DNA of 64,000 bases, taken from assembly GCA_008273105.1 (NCBI GenBank), contig GCA_008273105.1_4080.1. One strand, given 5' to 3'. The DNA is from a phage. The position numbers were made by a program, and so were the translations under genes. Below are positions 11,741 to 25,794 of the stretch, in pieces; the first letter of the stretch is position 1, and each line of letters starts with the position of its first letter. The notes beneath the pieces were generated by a model. The model did not search any database. It was not told the DNA's origin and saw nothing but the letters and a program-made list of their open reading frames with translations.

Positions 11741-13546
11741 TTATTTGTGCTGAATACGCTCGCAACACTCTTGTTGCTTGCCTTTATTGAAGCCACGCGA
11801 AGAAGGATTACCCAAGTACCCAGAAACACGACGAATCACTGAGATTGTCTTCTCATTACGATTATCACATACAGGACAGTGGAAACCATGTTTATCGACA
11901 CTGAACTCACCCTGGAAGCCACATTCATAACAATGGTCAACTGGTTGGTTAATACCAAAATATGGTATCTTAGTGTACGCATAGTTAACTAATGTTTCAA
12001 GTGCTTGAATGTTGTTTGCTAAGTTTGGAGATTCAACATAACTGATGTTTCCACCGTTACTTAGGTAAGCAAACCCTTCTTCATAACTCCATTTATCAAA
12101 TGGAGAACTTTCTACCCATACTGGTTGATGGAAGGAATTTGTGATGTAATCACGTTTTAGTACTGAAGGATATTTTGCTTCAATGCAACGTGCAAATTTA
12201 TAACAAAGTGACTCTGCTGGCGTTCCATATAGACTAAAAGCTATATTACTCTCTTTTTTGAACTCATCGCATTTTACTTTCATATAATTCAGTACTGACA
12301 TACAAAACTCCTTACTGATAGAACCAGTGAGGATTTCTGAACATTCAACAAGTCCAACATAACCAATACTAATACTAGCATAACCATTGTAAAATAGCTT
12401 GTCAATGGTTTCTTCTGCACCTAAACGTGCTAATGCACCTTCCATGAACAAAATTGGATTTTGCTTTGCTTTAGTGCCTTTTAAACGCTCTACGCGGTTC
12501 ATCTGAGCACGATATGCAATATTCATATGCTCGTCTATCTTATCAAAAAACTCTCCGTCAGAAGTACTCTCAAGAGCAATTAGAGGTAAATTGATAGAAA
12601 CCACACCTAAATTGAAACGACCGTTGTATTGTTCATTTCCATTTGAATCTTCCCATTTTCCTAAGAATGAACGACAGCCCATCGGTGTTACAGCAGTACT
12701 ACTACTTCCAGTCACTTTGTGATTTAATGGTACTGAAACAAAGTCAGGGTAGATTCGTTTTGATGCACAACGCATAGCTAACTGTTTAAGGTCATAATTA
12801 CTATCGTTGGTATTCATGTTTATACCATCTTGTAAAAAGAAAATTACTTTAGGAAACACTGGAGTAATCTTATCTTTACCTAAACCATTCTCATGGACTT
12901 TTAAGTACTGTTCAGTGATTAATTTGCCAAATTTAGAAGTGTTAAGACCTAAACTAAGAGAAATAAATGCAGCTTGACCATTAGTACTAATCATTGAATT
13001 AGTTTGGTAAAGTAATGTTTGGCAGCCATCATACACTTCTTTACGTAGTTCTTCTTCAATGAATTCATCACTTAGATTATATTTCTTTTGTTTTTCTAAC
13101 AGCTTATCCCATGACTTTTGAACGTAAGGTTCTAATCCGACATCAATGTGAGCCAAAGATTGACCACCATACTGGGAACTGGCAACAGCTTGGACAATTT
13201 GTGTCAGTACTGTGCAAGCTACACTGAAACTTTTTGGTTCTTCAATTTTAGCACAACCAATAGTGAAGCCGTTTTTAAGCATATCAGGATAGTTAACCAA
13301 GCAACAATTGGTCAATGGGCTAATATAGTAATCTAAATCATGAATATGACCATATCCATCATTATGCCATTGCATTAACTCGGTGGGAATAACATCTTGT
13401 GAATAATGCTTAGATAGAATACCTGCTAGTAAATCTCTATGTGTATTGACGCATTTTGCATCTTTATTAGCGTTTTCATTAGTAAGATCAGTATTACTCT
13501 GATTTAGGAAATTTGTTACATCGGTATATAATTTATCTAATTGCAT
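11741..13546 (-). CDS. nrdD: anaerobic ribonucleoside-triphosphate reductase (glycyl-radical enzyme)
   Basis: C-terminal Zn-ribbon CYECG...CPVCDN and glycyl-radical motif RRVSGYLG; NENANKD and NCCLVNYPDMLKNGF blocks as in T4 NrdD; track ORF runs to 13609 but internal ATG at 13546 has an AGGA RBS and gives a T4-like N-terminal length. Confidence 0.9.
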   Translation of the reverse strand: MQLDKLYTDVTNFLNQSNTDLTNENANKDAKCVNTHRDLLAGILSKHYSQDVIPTELMQWHNDGYGHIHDLDYYISPLTNCCLVNYPDMLKNGFTIGCAKIEEPKSFSVACTVLTQIVQAVASSQYGGQSLAHIDVGLEPYVQKSWDKLLEKQKKYNLSDEFIEEELRKEVYDGCQTLLYQTNSMISTNGQAAFISLSLGLNTSKFGKLITEQYLKVHENGLGKDKITPVFPKVIFFLQDGINMNTNDSNYDLKQLAMRCASKRIYPDFVSVPLNHKVTGSSSTAVTPMGCRSFLGKWEDSNGNEQYNGRFNLGVVSINLPLIALESTSDGEFFDKIDEHMNIAYRAQMNRVERLKGTKAKQNPILFMEGALARLGAEETIDKLFYNGYASISIGYVGLVECSEILTGSISKEFCMSVLNYMKVKCDEFKKESNIAFSLYGTPAESLCYKFARCIEAKYPSVLKRDYITNSFHQPVWVESSPFDKWSYEEGFAYLSNGGNISYVESPNLANNIQALETLVNYAYTKIPYFGINQPVDHCYECGFQGEFSVDKHGFHCPVCDNRNEKTISVIRRVSGYLGNPSSRGFNKGKQQECCERIQHK

Positions 13547-13683
13547 TGTACATTCCTTGTATTTTGAAATCATCTGGGGGTGAAGATATTTAATATCACC
13601 AGACAACATTATAGCGTCAGAACAGGTTATTTCTCTTGACCTATATCAAGGAAAAGTCACATTGCTTTTTATTTGCACAAATA

Positions 13684-13710
13684 GAAAAAGCACCACAAGG
13701 GTGCTTTTAA
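13684..13710 (-). terminator. hairpin terminator (possibly bidirectional)
   Basis: agcaccacaagggtgct hairpin flanked by A-run and T-run upstream of nrdD. Confidence 0.4.
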
Positions 13711-13809
13711 AGTACTGCTAATATAACAACTGCCCAAATTAGCAGTAATACATTGGTTGGTGCGGAAAAAAGCATATATGCAGCAAGTGCACTGCAACCT
13801 ATGACAAGT

Positions 13810-14046
13810 TTAGCTAGTCTCATCTGGACTCCATGTAATAGTTACTGTGAACGTCCCTTCTTGAAAACCAAACTCATCTTGTGGGATTTGTTCAGCTAAT
13901 GGGTTAAATCTTGAATCGAAGGCTTCATGCACATCTCTCTGAATATCATAGAGACTTTCACCATCGTATTCTTTTTTAAAGATTTCATTCTGCATTGATA
14001 CGTAACGACCCTCGTATTCTGTCTGGATAGCCATCAAATAGTTCAA
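13810..14046 (-). CDS. hypothetical protein (78 aa or shorter)
   Basis: Track ORF; N-terminus overlaps upstream ORF so an internal start is likely. Confidence 0.4.
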   Translation of the reverse strand: MNYLMAIQTEYEGRYVSMQNEIFKKEYDGESLYDIQRDVHEAFDSRFNPLAEQIPQDEFGFQEGTFTVTITWSPDETS

Positions 14047-14395
14047 TAAGTTGGTTTAACGCATAAGAACTGAAGAATGGATTATTCTTTGCAATTTCTA
14101 TTCGTTTTTCAATATCCATTAATATAATCTCTGGTCTACTGAAATTACCTTTACGTCTATATGTTAGTAAACGCTCTTTGTGTCCGTTGAACTGAAATTC
14201 AAAATATGTTGATGATGTATAATCACTTCCATCAGGAATCGGAATTGAGAAATCAACATTGTACTTATAACCAAATGCAAAAAAATAACCACCATCTTCG
14301 AACGGTATAGTTGTATCATTTAGGTGGAAATCTATTTCATCTCCTAATATATCAAATATCTTGGTACTTAGAGACATAAAATCATCGGCTAACAT
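13985..14395 (-). CDS. hypothetical protein (136 aa)
   Basis: Track ORF in dense same-strand array. Confidence 0.5.
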   Translation of the reverse strand: MLADDFMSLSTKIFDILGDEIDFHLNDTTIPFEDGGYFFAFGYKYNVDFSIPIPDGSDYTSSTYFEFQFNGHKERLLTYRRKGNFSRPEIILMDIEKRIEIAKNNPFFSSYALNQLIELFDGYPDRIRGSLRINAE

Positions 14396-14403
14396 TTTTT
14401 ACC

Positions 14404-14622
14404 TTATTTTATAACTCGACAGTAGTACTGAATAATGTAAGGAAATAATGGATTATTCACGTATGTAGCGAAATTAGCTATTGTAACTTTTTTATAGTAC
14501 GAATTATGAATTGTTATAAGAGTGTGGGGATCTATTGATTCTCTATTAGAGAGTTCAACATAACGCCCACACTTCATATAAGCCTTACCATAATAATCGT
14601 AAATTATGTCATATTTTTCCAT
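14404..14622 (-). CDS. hypothetical protein (72 aa)
   Basis: Track ORF, tightly packed between neighbours. Confidence 0.4.
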   Translation of the reverse strand: MEKYDIIYDYYGKAYMKCGRYVELSNRESIDPHTLITIHNSYYKKVTIANFATYVNNPLFPYIIQYYCRVIK

Positions 14623-14982
14623 TTATTCTGGATCTTTGTTTTTATCAACTGTGTTGTTTTTATTCAAATCAATTTGTAAAGCCATTGCAGCTTCAGCATT
14701 TTCTTCATGTGTGCCATTGAATTTATACCCATTCTTAATGAGATTCACTGTGTAGTACTTATTGTAAAGAAATGCCCACACGACCATTGCAATTGTACCC
14801 ACAATCCAAAATGACACTGCGTTGAGGATGAAGTAAATTACAAATGCACCGATGAACGTAATAAAGTCACCACGAAACAATGCAGGGAACGGTCCAAAGA
14901 ATAATGTTGTCCATGAGAATCCAAAGAAACCATCTTTGCGTTGTCCTACATTTTCATTTTTTAAAGAAATAGTTTTAGCCAT
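14623..14982 (-). CDS. predicted membrane protein (119 aa)
   Basis: Two hydrophobic segments (FFGPFPALFRGDFITFIGAFVIYFILNAV and IVGTIAMVVWAFLY). Confidence 0.5.
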   Translation of the reverse strand: MAKTISLKNENVGQRKDGFFGFSWTTLFFGPFPALFRGDFITFIGAFVIYFILNAVSFWIVGTIAMVVWAFLYNKYYTVNLIKNGYKFNGTHEENAEAAMALQIDLNKNNTVDKNKDPE

Positions 14983-14991
14983 TTTAATCTC

Positions 14992-15216
14992 CTACTTATT
15001 ATTTGGGTTTGGTATACAGTACACATATACTAGATTACTAAAGTGTTCAGTACTGGAATATTTTGCTAACTCAGTAATGTGAAAGTTCTTGTCATAAAAC
15101 CTTCCACTATTGAATGTTGTTATTTGGCAACAATGTATAGGTCTGAAAATATAATAATAAAATATATCATTTTCAACTACAACAGTATGGTTTGTATAAC
15201 GCTCGATTTTCTTCAT
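14992..15216 (-). CDS. hypothetical protein (74 aa)
   Basis: Track ORF; start adjacent to stop of the deaminase-like gene. Confidence 0.4.
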   Translation of the reverse strand: MKKIERYTNHTVVVENDIFYYYIFRPIHCCQITTFNSGRFYDKNFHITELAKYSSTEHFSNLVYVYCIPNPNNK

Positions 15217-15581
15217 GTGTGGATAATTTCCTTAACCCCGTATTCCATAATTGCTAATGTGCAAATTTCACATGGTTTAGCAGGTACAGGAATACCATCT
15301 TTACTTATCCGTGCAATCAGTAAAGTATGAACATCAGCACGTGCAGCTAATAAGCAAGAAATTTCAGCATGGAGAAATTCACCTTGTGGACGTCCAGCAC
15401 GAATTGCAAAACCTTTCTGTACTGGATGTGTCTGTGTATAAGAATTTGTGCGTGTTGCCAGTACTCGACCTTTTTTATCCAGTGCACGAGCAATCACACG
15501 ATACCGCTTGTAGTTCCCTACTTGCTCAATGGGTGGCATCCGGCGTAATTCTTCAACAAGTTTCTCCAATTTACTATTCAT
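15213..15581 (-). CDS. small cytidine/adenosine-deaminase-fold protein (TadA/dCMP-deaminase-like zinc site)
   Basis: HAEISCLL followed by PCEICTLAI matches the H-A-E ... P-C-x-x-C zinc-binding signature of the CDA superfamily; 122 aa. Confidence 0.55.
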   Translation of the reverse strand: MNSKLEKLVEELRRMPPIEQVGNYKRYRVIARALDKKGRVLATRTNSYTQTHPVQKGFAIRAGRPQGEFLHAEISCLLAARADVHTLLIARISKDGIPVPAKPCEICTLAIMEYGVKEIIHT

Positions 15582-16204
15582 AAGTCTAAGTCTATACCCT
15601 TTTCAAGTGATTTTTCTAGAACCCAAAGTTTACATTCTTCACTCTCCAAATGTATCTTTGCCTCTTGCTGTTCTTCTATTGTACAAGACTTTATGAATGC
15701 ACGCAAGGCTTGGATTGTATTTTTTAAATTTTTTATGTCATCGATGATTTTTTCTTTGGTTTCTTCATCGATTACACATGAACTCCAACTGTGTCGTTCC
15801 TCCCAAACTGTTTTAGCGGGATTATATATTGATTGTGATGCATTGAATGAATGTATTTTATGAAATTTATCATCTGCTTCCTGTTGGGTATAATCCCCAT
15901 ATGTGTTCAGAACATTTTTGTATAATTCATCAATGGCCTCTTCATACGTATCACCACCACAATCCAATTGATAATCATGTGCTTGTACCCATTCGTCGTC
16001 TTGCTCAATATACATTGGTGAAAGAAATTCTACCCAAAATTGAGTCTTTGTATTCAATGCTTTGAAATCTTCAATTCGATTTGTCATTGGACACACATCA
16101 TGAGGTTCTATATCAATCCTAGCTGGAACCATATCTTTGTTTATGAATTTAGGATGACCCAAAATCCACCAGTACTTTTCCGATGTAGTCATAGTAATCT
16201 CCAA
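15578..16204 (-). CDS. hypothetical protein (208 aa)
   Basis: Track ORF; no recognisable motif. Confidence 0.5.
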   Translation of the reverse strand: MEITMTTSEKYWWILGHPKFINKDMVPARIDIEPHDVCPMTNRIEDFKALNTKTQFWVEFLSPMYIEQDDEWVQAHDYQLDCGGDTYEEAIDELYKNVLNTYGDYTQQEADDKFHKIHSFNASQSIYNPAKTVWEERHSWSSCVIDEETKEKIIDDIKNLKNTIQALRAFIKSCTIEEQQEAKIHLESEECKLWVLEKSLEKGIDLDL

Positions 16205-16238
16205 TTAAAAAGTACTGCACACGATGGCAGTACTGATG

Positions 16239-16598
16239 TTAAACGTAACGTTTCTTTTTATAATCATACCCTACTGCTTTGTAAAAGTCAAACAAAGAAG
16301 CATGTTCAAATGTAGGTAATAGATCATATGGGTGCTGATAGTTCGCAATACCAACAATAGCCATCATTGATTCAGCAGTTCTTACGTTCTCACTATCCCA
16401 TTCATCTAAACGCCAAAGTGAGCAAAGTACCTCTCGTTCATGTTGCTTACCCAGAAAGAATCCAGCTTCACGGTCACGAAATGCACCTACACTGACAGTA
16501 CTTTTGTACCAGTCTTTTTCACCATATAATGGCATACGGATAATATGTTTTTCTTTAGCTTCTCCAAAGCGATGAAGAAATGCTACATAATCACTCAT
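16239..16598 (-). CDS. hypothetical protein (119 aa)
   Basis: Track ORF; ATG overlaps the stop of a small upstream Zn-ribbon ORF (ATGA). Confidence 0.5.
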   Translation of the reverse strand: MSDYVAFLHRFGEAKEKHIIRMPLYGEKDWYKSTVSVGAFRDREAGFFLGKQHEREVLCSLWRLDEWDSENVRTAESMMAIVGIANYQHPYDLLPTFEHASLFDFYKAVGYDYKKKRYV

Positions 16599-16600
16599 AA

Positions 16601-16771
16601 TTTATAACCCATTACAGGTTTGGTATGATCCGGTTCGTAAGACTTTTCAGTACTGAACCCTCTGAAATTTCCACGTCCTGGATTTGGACAAGCCATCCCT
16701 TGTATTGAATGCTTACCCTTATCTTTGCCACAATTTTTACATTTGTAGCCAATTACTTCTTTCATTGTGCA
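16601..16771 (-). CDS. small Cys-rich (zinc-ribbon-like) protein, about 56 aa
   Basis: Hand-translated minus-strand ORF MKEVIGYKCKNCGKDKGKHSIQGMACPNPGRGNF...; below track size cutoff; coordinates approximate. Confidence 0.3.
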
Positions 16772-16992
16772 TCCTTCGGAACAGTATTAAGACGTTTGCG
16801 ATTCACAATCTTCCTGCACATGAGGTTAAGATCTTGCCCATGACGCATAGTATGACATGCGTATAGTGTTCCTTGATGATTTAGTTTTGTTAAACCTTGA
16901 CGGATGATTTCAGCATCCATCTCATCAACTTTAGGAGCACATCCACTCAGAAATACAATAGAAGAAATAATAAAAATATATAATAATTTCAT
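16762..16992 (-). CDS. predicted lipoprotein (76 aa)
   Basis: N-terminal MKLLYIFIISSIVFLSGCAP: signal peptide with lipobox-like LSGC. Confidence 0.5.
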   Translation of the reverse strand: MKLLYIFIISSIVFLSGCAPKVDEMDAEIIRQGLTKLNHQGTLYACHTMRHGQDLNLMCRKIVNRKRLNTVPKDAQ

Positions 16993-16995
16993 AAT

Positions 16996-17175
16996 TTAAT
17001 CACCTATACATAAGTACTCGATTGATGGTTTACCATTAACTAACACAATTCCAGTGTGAGTTAATACACAGTTGTCGGGAGCTTCTTCAAATACTGATAC
17101 GTAAATGTATGAACCATTACTAACTGAACAAGATAATACCATAAGAACTGCGATTAGTACAAGTAAAAATTTCAT
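16996..17175 (-). CDS. small secreted or membrane-anchored protein, about 59 aa
   Basis: Hand-translated ORF MKFLLVLIAVLMVLSCSVSNGSY... with hydrophobic signal-like N-terminus; below track cutoff. Confidence 0.35.
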   Translation of the reverse strand: MKFLLVLIAVLMVLSCSVSNGSYIYVSVFEEAPDNCVLTHTGIVLVNGKPSIEYLCIGD

Positions 17176-17181
17176 ATGAAC

Positions 17182-17829
17182 CTACTTTTTTGATTTATGT
17201 AATGCAATTTGTACTCGCGTAATGAACTCACGCTCTACTTCATCTGAATTAACACCATCGTATTGTGTTTTGAATAGTTCCATAGCTTTGATAGCCATTT
17301 GCACTGAAATTTCAGTAATACTTTCAGTATTGGTAGTCTCAAATACATTTCTGATGGATAGTTCACCATCATCAGCATGTTCTTGTTGAACCGTGTTGTT
17401 TTGTTCATCAATGTAACGTAAAGCTTTGTACTCTGCTTTTGTTAGATTTTCATACCAACGTGGGTGGTGGAACAAATCATGCATTGTAACTTTTGCTGCT
17501 TCCATGAGAAGTAATAGCTCTTCATTTCTGCGAATATGTTTTTCTTCACCTTTATGATTTTTGTAAGTATATGCACAACGCATAATGGCTAATCGAACTT
17601 CACCTGCTTTGGTGATAGTGTATGAATGTATTGCATTATCATAATCACTTTCCCATTTCTGACCAGCATATTCGTACCAAAGTTCATTAGTTTCCCATTT
17701 AATGAAATCAAATTCTAACAAACTGTCAATCAACTTAGCCAAATTACCACTGTACTCACGGCTAATGATATTGAAACCACCATTGTACTTTGCAAGGTAC
17801 AGAATCTTTTCTTGAGTTACATTTTTCAT
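17182..17829 (-). CDS. hypothetical protein (215 aa)
   Basis: Track ORF; no recognisable motif. Confidence 0.5.
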   Translation of the reverse strand: MKNVTQEKILYLAKYNGGFNIISREYSGNLAKLIDSLLEFDFIKWETNELWYEYAGQKWESDYDNAIHSYTITKAGEVRLAIMRCAYTYKNHKGEEKHIRRNEELLLLMEAAKVTMHDLFHHPRWYENLTKAEYKALRYIDEQNNTVQQEHADDGELSIRNVFETTNTESITEISVQMAIKAMELFKTQYDGVNSDEVEREFITRVQIALHKSKK

Positions 17830-18167
17830 TACATGTAATCCTTGATGTATTTTAGCAGTTTAGATTTCTCTTCGGTACTTAATGATTTCTTGTTCATTAA
17901 GTGTTTCATTTCTTGACGTTCAATTTCTTCACATCTTTTAGATTCAGCTTCAATTCGTGTATTATATTCTTCGTCAGTTTCTTCTCTGGTCCAAATTACA
18001 TTGTATCCATGAAAACCGCCGTAACCACTGTCTGGTGAAAGACTAATGTGACCGTTATATTCAGCACGATACTTATTAAGAGTGTCAATAAAGGTATCAA
18101 TGCCACACGGTTCAATTTCAATATAACCAATCACTACAGTAACGTCAATTTTGTTCATAAAGTTCAC
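17829..18167 (-). CDS. hypothetical protein (112 aa)
   Basis: Track ORF; start/stop overlap with neighbour. Confidence 0.5.
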   Translation of the reverse strand: MNFMNKIDVTVVIGYIEIEPCGIDTFIDTLNKYRAEYNGHISLSPDSGYGGFHGYNVIWTREETDEEYNTRIEAESKRCEEIERQEMKHLMNKKSLSTEEKSKLLKYIKDYM

Positions 18168-18185
18168 CTATAAAATTAGGGAGCA

Positions 18186-18743
18186 TTAGCTCCCTTTGTA
18201 TTGATGTTTACGTTTAGTACTGTATTTCCAGCCAGTACTATGTCTTGTTCTGATATCGTCCCAATACGATGGTAATGAACGCATCTTACGTCTTCCACGT
18301 ATATCAGGTTCCCCCTCATCCTTCAGTACTGCACAAGCCATACGACGCTCTTGTTGTGTCTTAGGACGCTTGTATCGGGAGTGGTTATGTTTGTACATAT
18401 ACGAACGCTTATGTCGCCATTCCGTATCACGAGCTTTACGTTTATGTTCCCAGTACTCATTATAGAGTATCATGTATTCACCCATAAGTAAATCAGGAGA
18501 TACAAGTAATCCTTTTTCAGTACAAAGATAATAACCCACAAACTTTTCTGGAAACATTTCGTAATAGAAACGGTTCTTCCAAAATGTTTCACGATTCTTT
18601 TTGTTGAATTCAGCTAAATCGAATTTCATCTTACTGTGGAAACGGTCTATACCGTCATGTTCCGCAATGTACTCTAACAGATTATCAATAATCTCAACTT
18701 TACCAGAATCGTGATACAACGTAAATGTTTGGTCAAAAAACAT
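18186..18743 (-). CDS. hypothetical protein with highly basic C-terminus (185 aa)
   Basis: Track ORF; C-terminal R/K-rich tail (KRPKTQQERR...RGRRKMR...KRKHQYKGS). Confidence 0.5.
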   Translation of the reverse strand: MFFDQTFTLYHDSGKVEIIDNLLEYIAEHDGIDRFHSKMKFDLAEFNKKNRETFWKNRFYYEMFPEKFVGYYLCTEKGLLVSPDLLMGEYMILYNEYWEHKRKARDTEWRHKRSYMYKHNHSRYKRPKTQQERRMACAVLKDEGEPDIRGRRKMRSLPSYWDDIRTRHSTGWKYSTKRKHQYKGS

Positions 18744-25051: not shown

Positions 25052-25306
25052 TTCTACAGTATTAAGCTTCTGACAAATCATATCAGCTTCTACTCGGTCT
25101 TTATAATAAATGGTAAATCCAAATCTACTTGTTACCCTTTTCTCACTACGGTGTATACAGTTTACAATATAGTACTTATTATTTTGTGCAGAAAAACGAA
25201 CTTCATAATTTCGAAAAGAAGTATTAGGTTCATCCATAGCAACTATATATAACATAAAAATGAAAAACACTGTTATTAGAAAAGCAATAATAATTATTAC
25301 TGTCAT
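25049..25306 (-). CDS. small membrane protein (85 aa)
   Basis: N-terminal hydrophobic helix MTVIIIIAFLITVFFIFMLYIVA. Confidence 0.45.
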   Translation of the reverse strand: MTVIIIIAFLITVFFIFMLYIVAMDEPNTSFRNYEVRFSAQNNKYYIVNCIHRSEKRVTSRFGFTIYYKDRVEADMICQKLNTVE

Positions 25307-25794
25307 TTATCAAGACCCTTATCATAAATGCAATTAACAATAATTCCAGCATCTTCCAGTACTTTAATAGCTTCTGGTGGTGTACGAGGATAATTTTTGA
25401 GATAAATTACACGTGAAATCCCACTACCTGCGATCAACTTAGAACAAGTATAACATGGTTGTAGTGTTGTGTAAAGAGTAGCACCTTGACGTTCAGTAGG
25501 AGAACTATAGAGTAAAGCGTTCATTTCAGCATGGATTTCATGAATATTACTCCACTCATGATGTTCATGCTTTGCTTCATCACTAACCCAGTCTTGAAAA
25601 CACCCATCATTGACTAAGTGTTGATTCACGTCACAACAATTTGGTTGTTTTGATGGAGTACCATTGTAACCAGTACTCAATACTCGGTTATTTTTAACAA
25701 TAACACAACCAACTTTTTGTGAAATACATTTACTTTCCTCAGCAACTACTTCTGCTATCTTCAACCAAGTCGTATGTTTCATTATAAGCTCCAA
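25303..25794 (-). CDS. cd: dCMP deaminase
   Basis: HAEMNALL and PCYTCSKLIAGSGI zinc-binding motifs typical of deoxycytidylate deaminase; 163 aa. Confidence 0.75.
   Translation of the reverse strand: MELIMKHTTWLKIAEVVAEESKCISQKVGCVIVKNNRVLSTGYNGTPSKQPNCCDVNQHLVNDGCFQDWVSDEAKHEHHEWSNIHEIHAEMNALLYSSPTERQGATLYTTLQPCYTCSKLIAGSGISRVIYLKNYPRTPPEAIKVLEDAGIIVNCIYDKGLDK

Follow-up and report, generated by a model that had tools for sequence, protein, structure and literature searches.

A virus-only clade of small, basic predicted deaminases represented by gp490 of an Escherichia phage 121Q-like genome

The window analysed here, a stretch of 64,000 nucleotides (nt) of phage DNA, shares 99.6% identity with Escherichia phage 121Q, an Asteriusvirus and jumbo myovirus of 348 kb. 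An open reading frame (ORF) read from position 15581 to 15213 on the minus strand encodes a protein of 122 amino acid residues (aa) that corresponds to 121Q gp490 (YP_009102077.1), and its GenBank/RefSeq label is already 'dCMP deaminase' (dCMP, deoxycytidine monophosphate). Based on its sequence and predicted structure, gp490 is interpreted as a catalytically competent, zinc-dependent hydrolytic deaminase belonging to a virus-only clade that is distinct from the canonical dCMP deaminases. The clade, whose members are about 100-140 aa long, is named here the phage mini-deaminases. The coordinates of the features are given in Table 1.

When the whole window was scanned in six frames for the pattern [HC]xE-x15-60-[PS]CxxC, only two ORFs were found, gp490 and the ORF at 25303..25794, so the motif in gp490 is no chance match. 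The second ORF is a canonical paralog that scored 74 bits (E 1.2e-20) against the ComEB model TIGR02571, lies 10 kb from the mini-deaminase gene in 121Q, and shares homology with gp490 only in the superfamily core. Translation probably begins at the ATG at 25782 and yields 159 aa, as suggested by a database homolog (P0315, 99% identical) of this length; the isoelectric point (pI) of the paralog, computed on the 163-aa form, is about 6.15. An earlier note, made from the letters of the window, had proposed a second deaminase-fold gene besides the dCMP deaminase, and this was confirmed by the HAE…PCxxC signature, a Pfam match and a confident AlphaFold model. Two 'CMP/dCMP deaminases' have also been recorded in a Rak2-like phage, in the paper on phage CBB (PMC5259590). 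The UniRef name of the canonical paralog is 'tRNA-specific adenosine deaminase', and the protein of that name in phage Sharanji (PMC11895373) may be this paralog and not a true TadA.

Table 1. Positions of gp490, its signature residues, adjoining features and the paralog in the window, and of paired deaminase genes on four IMG/VR contigs (L104, L136, L126 and L087)
Feature	Position	Strand	Remarks
Mini-deaminase coding sequence, gp490	15213..15581	-	122 aa, pI 9.7 (9.71)
H71-A72-E73 (in LHAEISCLL), zinc-ligand His and catalytic Glu, N-terminus of helix 2	15363..15371	-	H and E invariant family-wide
P103-C104-E-I-C107 (in KPCEICTLAI), two zinc-ligand Cys, N-terminus of helix 3	15261..15275	-	invariant family-wide
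N46...(K50)-T51-H52-P53-x-Q55 family signature, strand 2 end into extra helix	15417..15446	-	
R91, end of strand 3	15309..15311	-	98-99% conserved in family, absent from canonical dCMP deaminases
gp489, upstream gene, PHROG_16370 (function unknown)	15578..16192	-	stop overlaps gp490 start by 4 nt (ATGA)
gp491, downstream gene, 74 aa, no family match	14992..15216	-	start overlaps gp490 stop by 4 nt
Terminator-like hairpin just upstream of gp489	16211..16234	-	predicted
Terminator-like hairpins	13686..13796	-	predicted
Terminator-like hairpin	18178..18195		predicted
Canonical ComEB/dCMP-deaminase-type paralog	25303..25782	-	159 aa from ATG; listed ORF 25303..25794 starts at TTG
Mini-deaminase and canonical dCMP deaminase (145 aa)	L104 2719..3461	same strand	4-nt overlap of stop and start
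Mini-deaminase and canonical dCMP deaminase (145 aa)	L136 1583..2507	same strand	79 nt apart
Mini-deaminase and canonical dCMP deaminase (145 aa)	L126 2194..3112	same strand	172 nt apart
Mini-deaminase and canonical dCMP deaminase (145 aa)	L087 3010..4261	same strand	502 nt apart

The family was collected by an exhaustive profile search, which returned 4,403 representatives of 50%-identity clusters at E ≤ 1e-3 and 1,039 at E ≤ 1e-10; the 150 representatives listed were all 96-166 aa long. Across the family alignments, the zinc ligands H71, C104 and C107 and the catalytic E73 were invariant, and N46 of strand 2 was conserved at 99%. The other conserved positions were 50 (K/R in 91%, Q in 121Q), T/S51, H52 (92%), P53 (91%), Q55 (89%), A59, A72, R91, G96, P103, the terminal [YH]-[TS] and, at the start of strand 4, G115 (73%), and the family motif can be written as N-x3-K-T-H-P-x-Q…HAE…R…PCxxC. 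R91 is a candidate contact for a phosphate or polyanion. In phiKZ gp260 (PHIKZ260, L005 5998..6357) and gp072 of Aeromonas phage 4L372D (L011 31060..31431), H-S-E replaces H-A-E (A72 to Ser), and phiKZ gp260 ends in '…EVIVSIGK' instead of '[YH]T'. All members were stand-alone proteins, and no domain fusion, including fusion to nucleic-acid-binding domains, was found across the family.

Profile comparisons placed the clade in the deaminase superfamily. The Pfam model PF00383 matched gp490 with 29.4 bits (gathering threshold 25) and all of 43 diverse members (best E 8.3e-16), and PHROG_174 ('dCMP deaminase') matched gp490 with E 6.6e-13. A search of the PDB with the single gp490 sequence gave nothing significant, while the profile matched the solved dCMP deaminases of S-TIM5, S. 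mutans and T4 with E values from 2.4e-6 to 1.1e-5 and TadA-like proteins at about 1e-3. When the 43 members were compared with NCBIfam, none reached a curated equivalog threshold. Weak affinities were observed for the models of anti-phage deoxycytidine triphosphate (dCTP) deaminase (33 members), tetrameric cytidine deaminase (TIGR01354, 18), ComEB (14) and TadA (8). The ComEB model TIGR02571 (cut-off 219 bits) did not match gp490 and reached a best E of 1.1e-6 among its 14 weak matches; TIGR01354 gave gp490 13.8 bits against a cut-off of 113.65; and the TadA model NF008113 (cut-off 150 bits) gave a best E of 3.8e-5, with none of its matches near the cut-off.

The AlphaFold2 model of gp490, based on a 30-sequence alignment, had a predicted local distance difference test score (pLDDT) of 91.2. 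Its elements were, in order, α1 (residues 3-14), β1 (28-34), β2 (40-45), an extra family-specific helix (53-61), α2 with the HAE motif (72-80), β3 (86-92), α3 with the PCxxC motif (105-114) and β4 (118-121), at which the protein ends. The predicted model showed a three-layer α/β/α deaminase fold in which both motifs lay at the N-termini of helices. Strand 5, and anything after strand 4, was missing from the model. Strand 5 was also absent in about two thirds of the members, and the shortest ones (about 101-103 aa) started with β1 and ended with β4. A C-terminal tail of the form …YT-T-x-D/N-G-x-x-x-E… was found in roughly one third of the members. In the tailed member P0209 (138 aa, pLDDT 93.5), β4 (123-127) led through a turn of five residues into β5 (133-137), thus forming a β4-β5 hairpin without an intervening helix.

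In the reference classification of the deaminases, antiparallel strands 4 and 5 define the 'C-terminal hairpin division', and a helix-4 between these strands, which makes strand 5 parallel, defines the division of the dCMP-deaminase/ComE clade (Iyer et al. 2011, PMC3239186). According to the models, the topology of the mini-deaminases would therefore be of the cytidine-deaminase (CDA) type, with a β4-β5 hairpin and no helix-4, and often reduced to four strands. In the fold comparison, a five-stranded relative was nearest to the homotetrameric CDAs and blasticidin-S deaminase (comparison values 11.2-11.7, 103-109 and 15-21%), followed by the S. mutans dCMP deaminase (11.0, 96 and 30%), TadA (10.9, 98 and 26%) and the toxins SsdA (7.5, 110 and 11%), DddB (6.9, 84 and 21%) and DddA (5.5, 95 and 8%). 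The earlier note had described a much shorter scaffold, closer to TadA or editing-type deaminases than to dCMP deaminase. The first part held: this is a second, much smaller deaminase-fold gene whose product is no ordinary dCMP deaminase, as gp490 has neither helix-4 nor a parallel strand 5, stays below every curated equivalog cut-off and is strongly basic. The second part did not, because the profile was nearest to dCMP deaminases and the fold to the CDAs and blasticidin-S deaminase, and the features expected of a TadA were missing.

TadA/Tad2 proteins fall into the division with helix-4 and carry two extra C-terminal helices as well as an EPCxMC motif (Iyer et al. 2011, PMC3239186). The core deaminase fold and the HAE/PCxxC motifs are common to TadA and gp490, but the latter has neither helix-4, strand 5 nor the C-terminal tRNA-binding helices, and it reads KPCEIC. 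A TadA-like A34 deaminase serving phage tRNAs would agree with the automated name given to many members by the Joint Genome Institute (JGI), 'tRNA(Arg) A34 adenosine deaminase TadA', and with the tRNAs that the carrier phages usually encode. The few TadA model matches described above argue against it. So do the tRNA inventories, on which this role was rejected as largely refuted: phiKZ encodes Thr-UGU, Asn-GUU (two copies), Asp-GUC, Met-CAU, Pro-UGG and Leu-UAA, and 4L372D encodes Thr-UGU only, with no A34 or Arg-ACG in either. No tRNA gene was found in the window. A role of this kind was considered extremely improbable.

The dCMP deaminases and ComEB (T4 Cd, cyanophage S-TIM5 dCD and the canonical 121Q gene) gave the best sequence-profile match, and they share with the mini-deaminases the HAE...PCxxC motif followed by a 'G-[IV]-K-x-[IV]-x-Y' strand 4, as well as phage genes in DNA- and nucleotide-metabolism neighbourhoods. 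However, they have helix-4, a parallel strand 5 and C-terminal elements, are 145-190 aa long and acidic to neutral, and occur in cells and phages, whereas the virus-only mini-deaminases have none of these properties. Membership of the dCMP-deaminase/ComE clade was thus ruled out by the topology and the curated models.

The homotetrameric CDAs and blasticidin-S deaminase resemble the mini-deaminases in their small size (about 130 aa), in the β4-turn-β5 hairpin without helix-4, which is found in the longer mini-deaminases, and in a short additional stretch that lies between strand 3 and PCxxC. They differ in that they are acidic, not strongly basic, and usually carry CAE, HAE being a minority form among CDAs; moreover, the mini-deaminases lack PCxxCRQ (PCEICTL, with no Arg after CxxC), and gp490 lacks strand 5 and remains far below the TIGR01354 cut-off. 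Membership of this group failed on PCxxCR and the curated models, although the modelled topology of the longer members matches. The same features bear on the proposal that the protein deaminates a free nucleoside, base or small molecule, either in cytidine/deoxycytidine salvage or by inactivating a cytosine- or adenine-containing immune signal or an antibiotic-like nucleoside. The weak TIGR01354 matches and anti-defence genes such as Acb1 near some loci are in line with it, but the CDA synapomorphies are missing, and the strong charge together with the conserved R91 and K50 suggests a phosphorylated or polyanionic ligand, not a neutral nucleoside. Nothing direct spoke for the degradation of a signal, and the proposal as a whole was judged unlikely.

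Compared with the MafB19-like/HxE toxin deaminases, the mini-deaminases have the hairpin-division topology, the HxE motif, an Asn at the end of strand 2 (N46), a basic residue before CxxC (K102-P-C) and a Gly at the start of strand 4 (G115). These agree broadly with the MafB19-like synapomorphies listed by Iyer et al. 2011 (PMC3239186) and are suggestive at most, but the corresponding model PF14437 (MafB19-deam), the second-best Pfam match in 35 of the 43 members, gave gp490 14.6 bits against a cut-off of 27 and is not discriminating, because homologs of the canonical dCMP deaminase match it too. Unlike the toxins, mini-deaminases are stand-alone phage proteins that lack both an immunity gene and any domain for secretion or delivery. 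A toxin module of a polymorphic toxin was ruled out, since the proteins are 96-166 aa long, without fusions, and have no conserved neighbour.

The distribution of the family was restricted to viruses. The tblastn search found it in 196 phage records, which included Rak2-like/Asteriusvirus jumbo phages, jumbo phages of Erwinia, Yersinia and Xanthomonas, phiKZ-like phages (PHIKZ260), Aeromonas phages, cyanophages and Salicola SCTP-2. When a degenerate DNA signature for N-x3-KTHPxQ-x14-LHAE was scanned against viral and bacterial/archaeal collections, it was found in at least 120 contigs of the viral collection, and only in 12 short contigs of metagenome-assembled genomes within the far larger 596 Gb of species-representative bacterial and archaeal genomes. 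The clade is virus-specific. Among the matches listed from a collection of 5.8 billion proteins, there were no Mb-scale contigs, and the names were automated only, 'TadA' or 'deoxycytidylate deaminase'.

The conserved positive charge is the most distinctive property of the clade. The median pI of 314 family members was 9.71 (interquartile range 9.51-9.86), with 98% above 8.5 and a median net charge of +9, compared with a median of 6.29 and 1% above 8.5 for 120 canonical dCMP deaminase homologs; the 108 non-overlapping ORFs of the window were mostly acidic (median 5.50, 3% at or above 9.7). The value for gp490 was the same as the family median, and phiKZ gp260 (9.63) and 4L372D gp072 (9.57) were close to it. 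The conserved basic positions were located in the β1-β2 hairpin (26, 36, 37 and 39) and in the loops framing the active site (50, 61, 67, 91, 94 and 102). Such a charge suggests that the ligand is a polyanion, be it a polynucleotide or a group of several phosphates. Taken together, the results show a zinc-deaminase active site that is intact and sits on a minimal, cationic scaffold of the predicted hairpin-division type, conserved under selection across very diverse phages.

A polynucleotide ligand would imply that the basic surface binds RNA or single-stranded DNA (ssDNA) and that cytosine (or adenine) is deaminated in situ, in early host takeover or anti-defence; the target could be tRNA, mRNA or rRNA of the host or the phage, or host DNA that is exposed. 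The conserved positive charge gives some real support to the nucleic-acid idea, through both its family-wide extent and its location in the hairpin and active-site loops, and the predicted hairpin-division topology is common to the DYW, MafB19, SCP1.201 and SsdA nucleic-acid deaminases. The frequent MafB19-deam match and the retention of the gene beside a canonical dCMP deaminase, and hence its non-redundancy, agree with editing too, as do a primary transcription start site of PHIKZ260 of its own in the early-infection map (PMC8244752) and the early accessory-gene contexts of some members. These contexts included a CCA-adding enzyme near the member in L007, Rnl1/Rnl2/PNKP near the member on the P0049 contig and, in L010 (6414..9713), a T4-like metagenomic contig, a mini-deaminase gene directly downstream of genes for an Acb1 (anti-CBASS) homolog, a PD-(D/E)XK protein and a 665-aa ADP-ribosyltransferase; the latter neighbourhood looks like an anti-defence or host-takeover one. 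On the other side, the family contains no nucleic-acid-binding domain or fusion, the PF14437 match extends to canonical dCMP deaminase homologs, and no A34 tRNA is present in phiKZ or 4L372D. The DNA of most carrier phages is unmodified and unprotected, so a DNA deaminase would damage the phage as well. Polynucleotide editing is thus regarded as possible, though doubtful. The more specific proposal, that the mini-deaminases, whose core comprises four strands and three helices in about 100 aa, would be the smallest natural polynucleotide editors, acting via the cationic surface on cytosine in RNA or ssDNA early in infection, seems rather improbable.

The reading we favour, with a probability of roughly 0.4, is that the mini-deaminases are unregulated cytosine-nucleotide deaminases acting on dCMP, a di- or triphosphate or a ribo form, which supplement the regulated dCMP/dCTP deaminases. 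Such an enzyme would catalyse, early in infection, the hydrolytic deamination of cytosine, less likely of adenine or guanine, in a phosphate-rich substrate whose phosphates would be bound by the conserved basic residues around the pocket. It would act alongside the regulated dCMP deaminase (121Q) or dCTP deaminase (phiKZ), not replace it, and may add C-to-U flux towards thymidylate synthase in AT-rich phages with hosts of higher GC content. This metabolic reading is based on the sequence affinity, on the neighbourhoods and on the mini-deaminase as the sole CDA-fold enzyme in some thymidylate-synthase phages. In the complete genome of phiKZ, gp260 is the only CDA-fold gene, and the genome also encodes dihydrofolate reductase, thymidylate synthase, ribonucleotide reductase (RNR) and a dUTPase-fold dCTP deaminase; in the complete genome of 4L372D, the mini-deaminase is likewise the only CDA-fold gene, accompanied by thymidylate synthase, dUTPase and RNRs. 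Depending on the phage, the mini-deaminase co-occurs with a canonical dCMP deaminase or a dCTP deaminase, or is found with neither. In 121Q, the distance of gp490 from NrdD/NrdG is 2-4 kb. The recurrent neighbours at 103 viral loci were PD-(D/E)XK nuclease, DUF6267, 2OG-Fe(II) oxygenase and RNase H, as well as glutaredoxin (9 loci), ThyX (8), canonical dCMP deaminase (8) and RNR beta (7). The AT-richness of the carriers was also counted in favour of a nucleotide substrate.

Several observations weigh against this cytosine-nucleotide reading. If the protein were simply a dCMP or dCTP deaminase, it would duplicate the canonical enzyme in Rak2-like phages or the dUTPase-fold dCTP deaminase in phiKZ. 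As helix-4, strand 5 and the C-terminal elements are absent, the protein is also without any contribution they make to the phosphate, allosteric and oligomer sites. A net charge of about +9 on some 110 residues is unusual for a nucleotide-pool enzyme, and it is a family trait, as 98% of the 314 members are basic. The metabolic association is loose, since none of the 103 loci revealed a conserved partner gene and the most frequent neighbour family was present at only 11 of them. The GC contents of the carriers (32.9% in the 121Q window, 35.1% in 4L372D, 36.8% in phiKZ and a median of 40.9% in 120 viral loci) have no matched background. Finally, no experimental work on the clade was found in the literature on the 121Q deaminase, phiKZ gp260/PHIKZ260, phage counter-defence cytidine deaminases and base-editor deaminase mining.

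On four of the contigs, the mini-deaminase gene and a same-strand canonical dCMP deaminase gene were adjacent or had at most two small genes between them, which indicates that the two are linked but not redundant. This recurrence, once with overlapping stop and start, would also fit a non-catalytic or regulatory deaminase-like subunit, for example one modulating the adjacent canonical dCMP deaminase by analogy with ADAT3, and the edge of strand 4, left open in the truncated fold, could offer a pairing surface to another subunit. Yet no catalytic or zinc-binding residue varies among hundreds of diverged sequences, and phiKZ and 4L372D carry a mini-deaminase without a canonical partner. A subunit of this kind was considered very unlikely.

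Two further proposals were examined. Action on a modified nucleotide pool, as suggested in the earlier note, receives no support from the diversity of the carriers (T4-like, T5-like, rV5-like, phiKZ-like and Rak2-like phages and cyanophages), and no consistent association of the family with known hypermodification genes was seen, a point that was not rigorously tested. A virion protein was rejected: the sole mention of a deaminase in the phAPEC6 paper is in the genome description and not in the virion proteome, and the phiKZ record carries no structural flag on gp260, the checks not being exhaustive.

In the window, gp490 is translationally coupled to genes of unknown function on both sides. 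The neighbours gp484-gp495 matched no Pfam families and only PHROGs of unknown function, so the local context is uninformative. Seven terminator-like sites were found where 1.8 were expected in shuffles, an enrichment, and they lay in gaps between genes of the minus-strand array, a position that points to short transcription units. By prediction only, the hairpin upstream of gp489 and those at 13686-13796 bracket a putative seven-gene unit that includes gp490. The promoter scan gave fewer matches than the shuffles predict and was therefore uninformative. Of the 108 non-overlapping ORFs of at least 60 aa, 107 were on the minus strand. When positions 13000..18000 were compared with phages G17, Sharanji, PBECO4, slurp01 and UB, two matching pieces were obtained over about 6.4 kb of these relatives, which annotate a WGR-domain protein in that stretch; near the deaminase cluster there may thus be an insertion/deletion polymorphism of about 1.4 kb, with the insertion absent from 121Q and the window.

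Side observations were also made in the other two genomes. In phiKZ (L018, 220-222 kb), PHIKZ214 and PHIKZ217 are both annotated as 'putative dCTP deaminase', one of them with only 53 aa, and may be a split or fragmented dUTPase-fold gene. In 4L372D (L011 and L013; 1-20 kb and 135-138.7 kb), there are blocks of small genes that return, identically annotated, in opposite orientation (for example gp007/gp040 and gp013/gp034) and again at the right end of the record, which indicates that the assembly carries long inverted and terminal repeats.

The gene itself, its generic annotation and the presence of two deaminases in Rak2-like phages are already known. What appears to be new is the combination of a large virus-only clade, a CDA-type topology often with four strands, a motif of its own, and an extreme conserved charge together with coexistence with genuine dCMP/dCTP deaminases. 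Annotation at scale looks wrong: thousands of phage genes, including phiKZ gp260 and those of 121Q/Rak2, are labelled 'dCMP deaminase', 'TadA' or 'hypothetical', and these genes appear to form one virus-specific clade that stands beside the genuine dCMP/dCTP deaminases and does not replace them. If the substrate is RNA or DNA, the clade would represent a new strategy of phages, and its members would be the smallest editing deaminases in nature, with a size that would make them attractive base-editor scaffolds. If it is a nucleotide, the mini-deaminases would constitute a branch of pyrimidine metabolism in AT-rich phages that has gone unrecognised and is probably unregulated.

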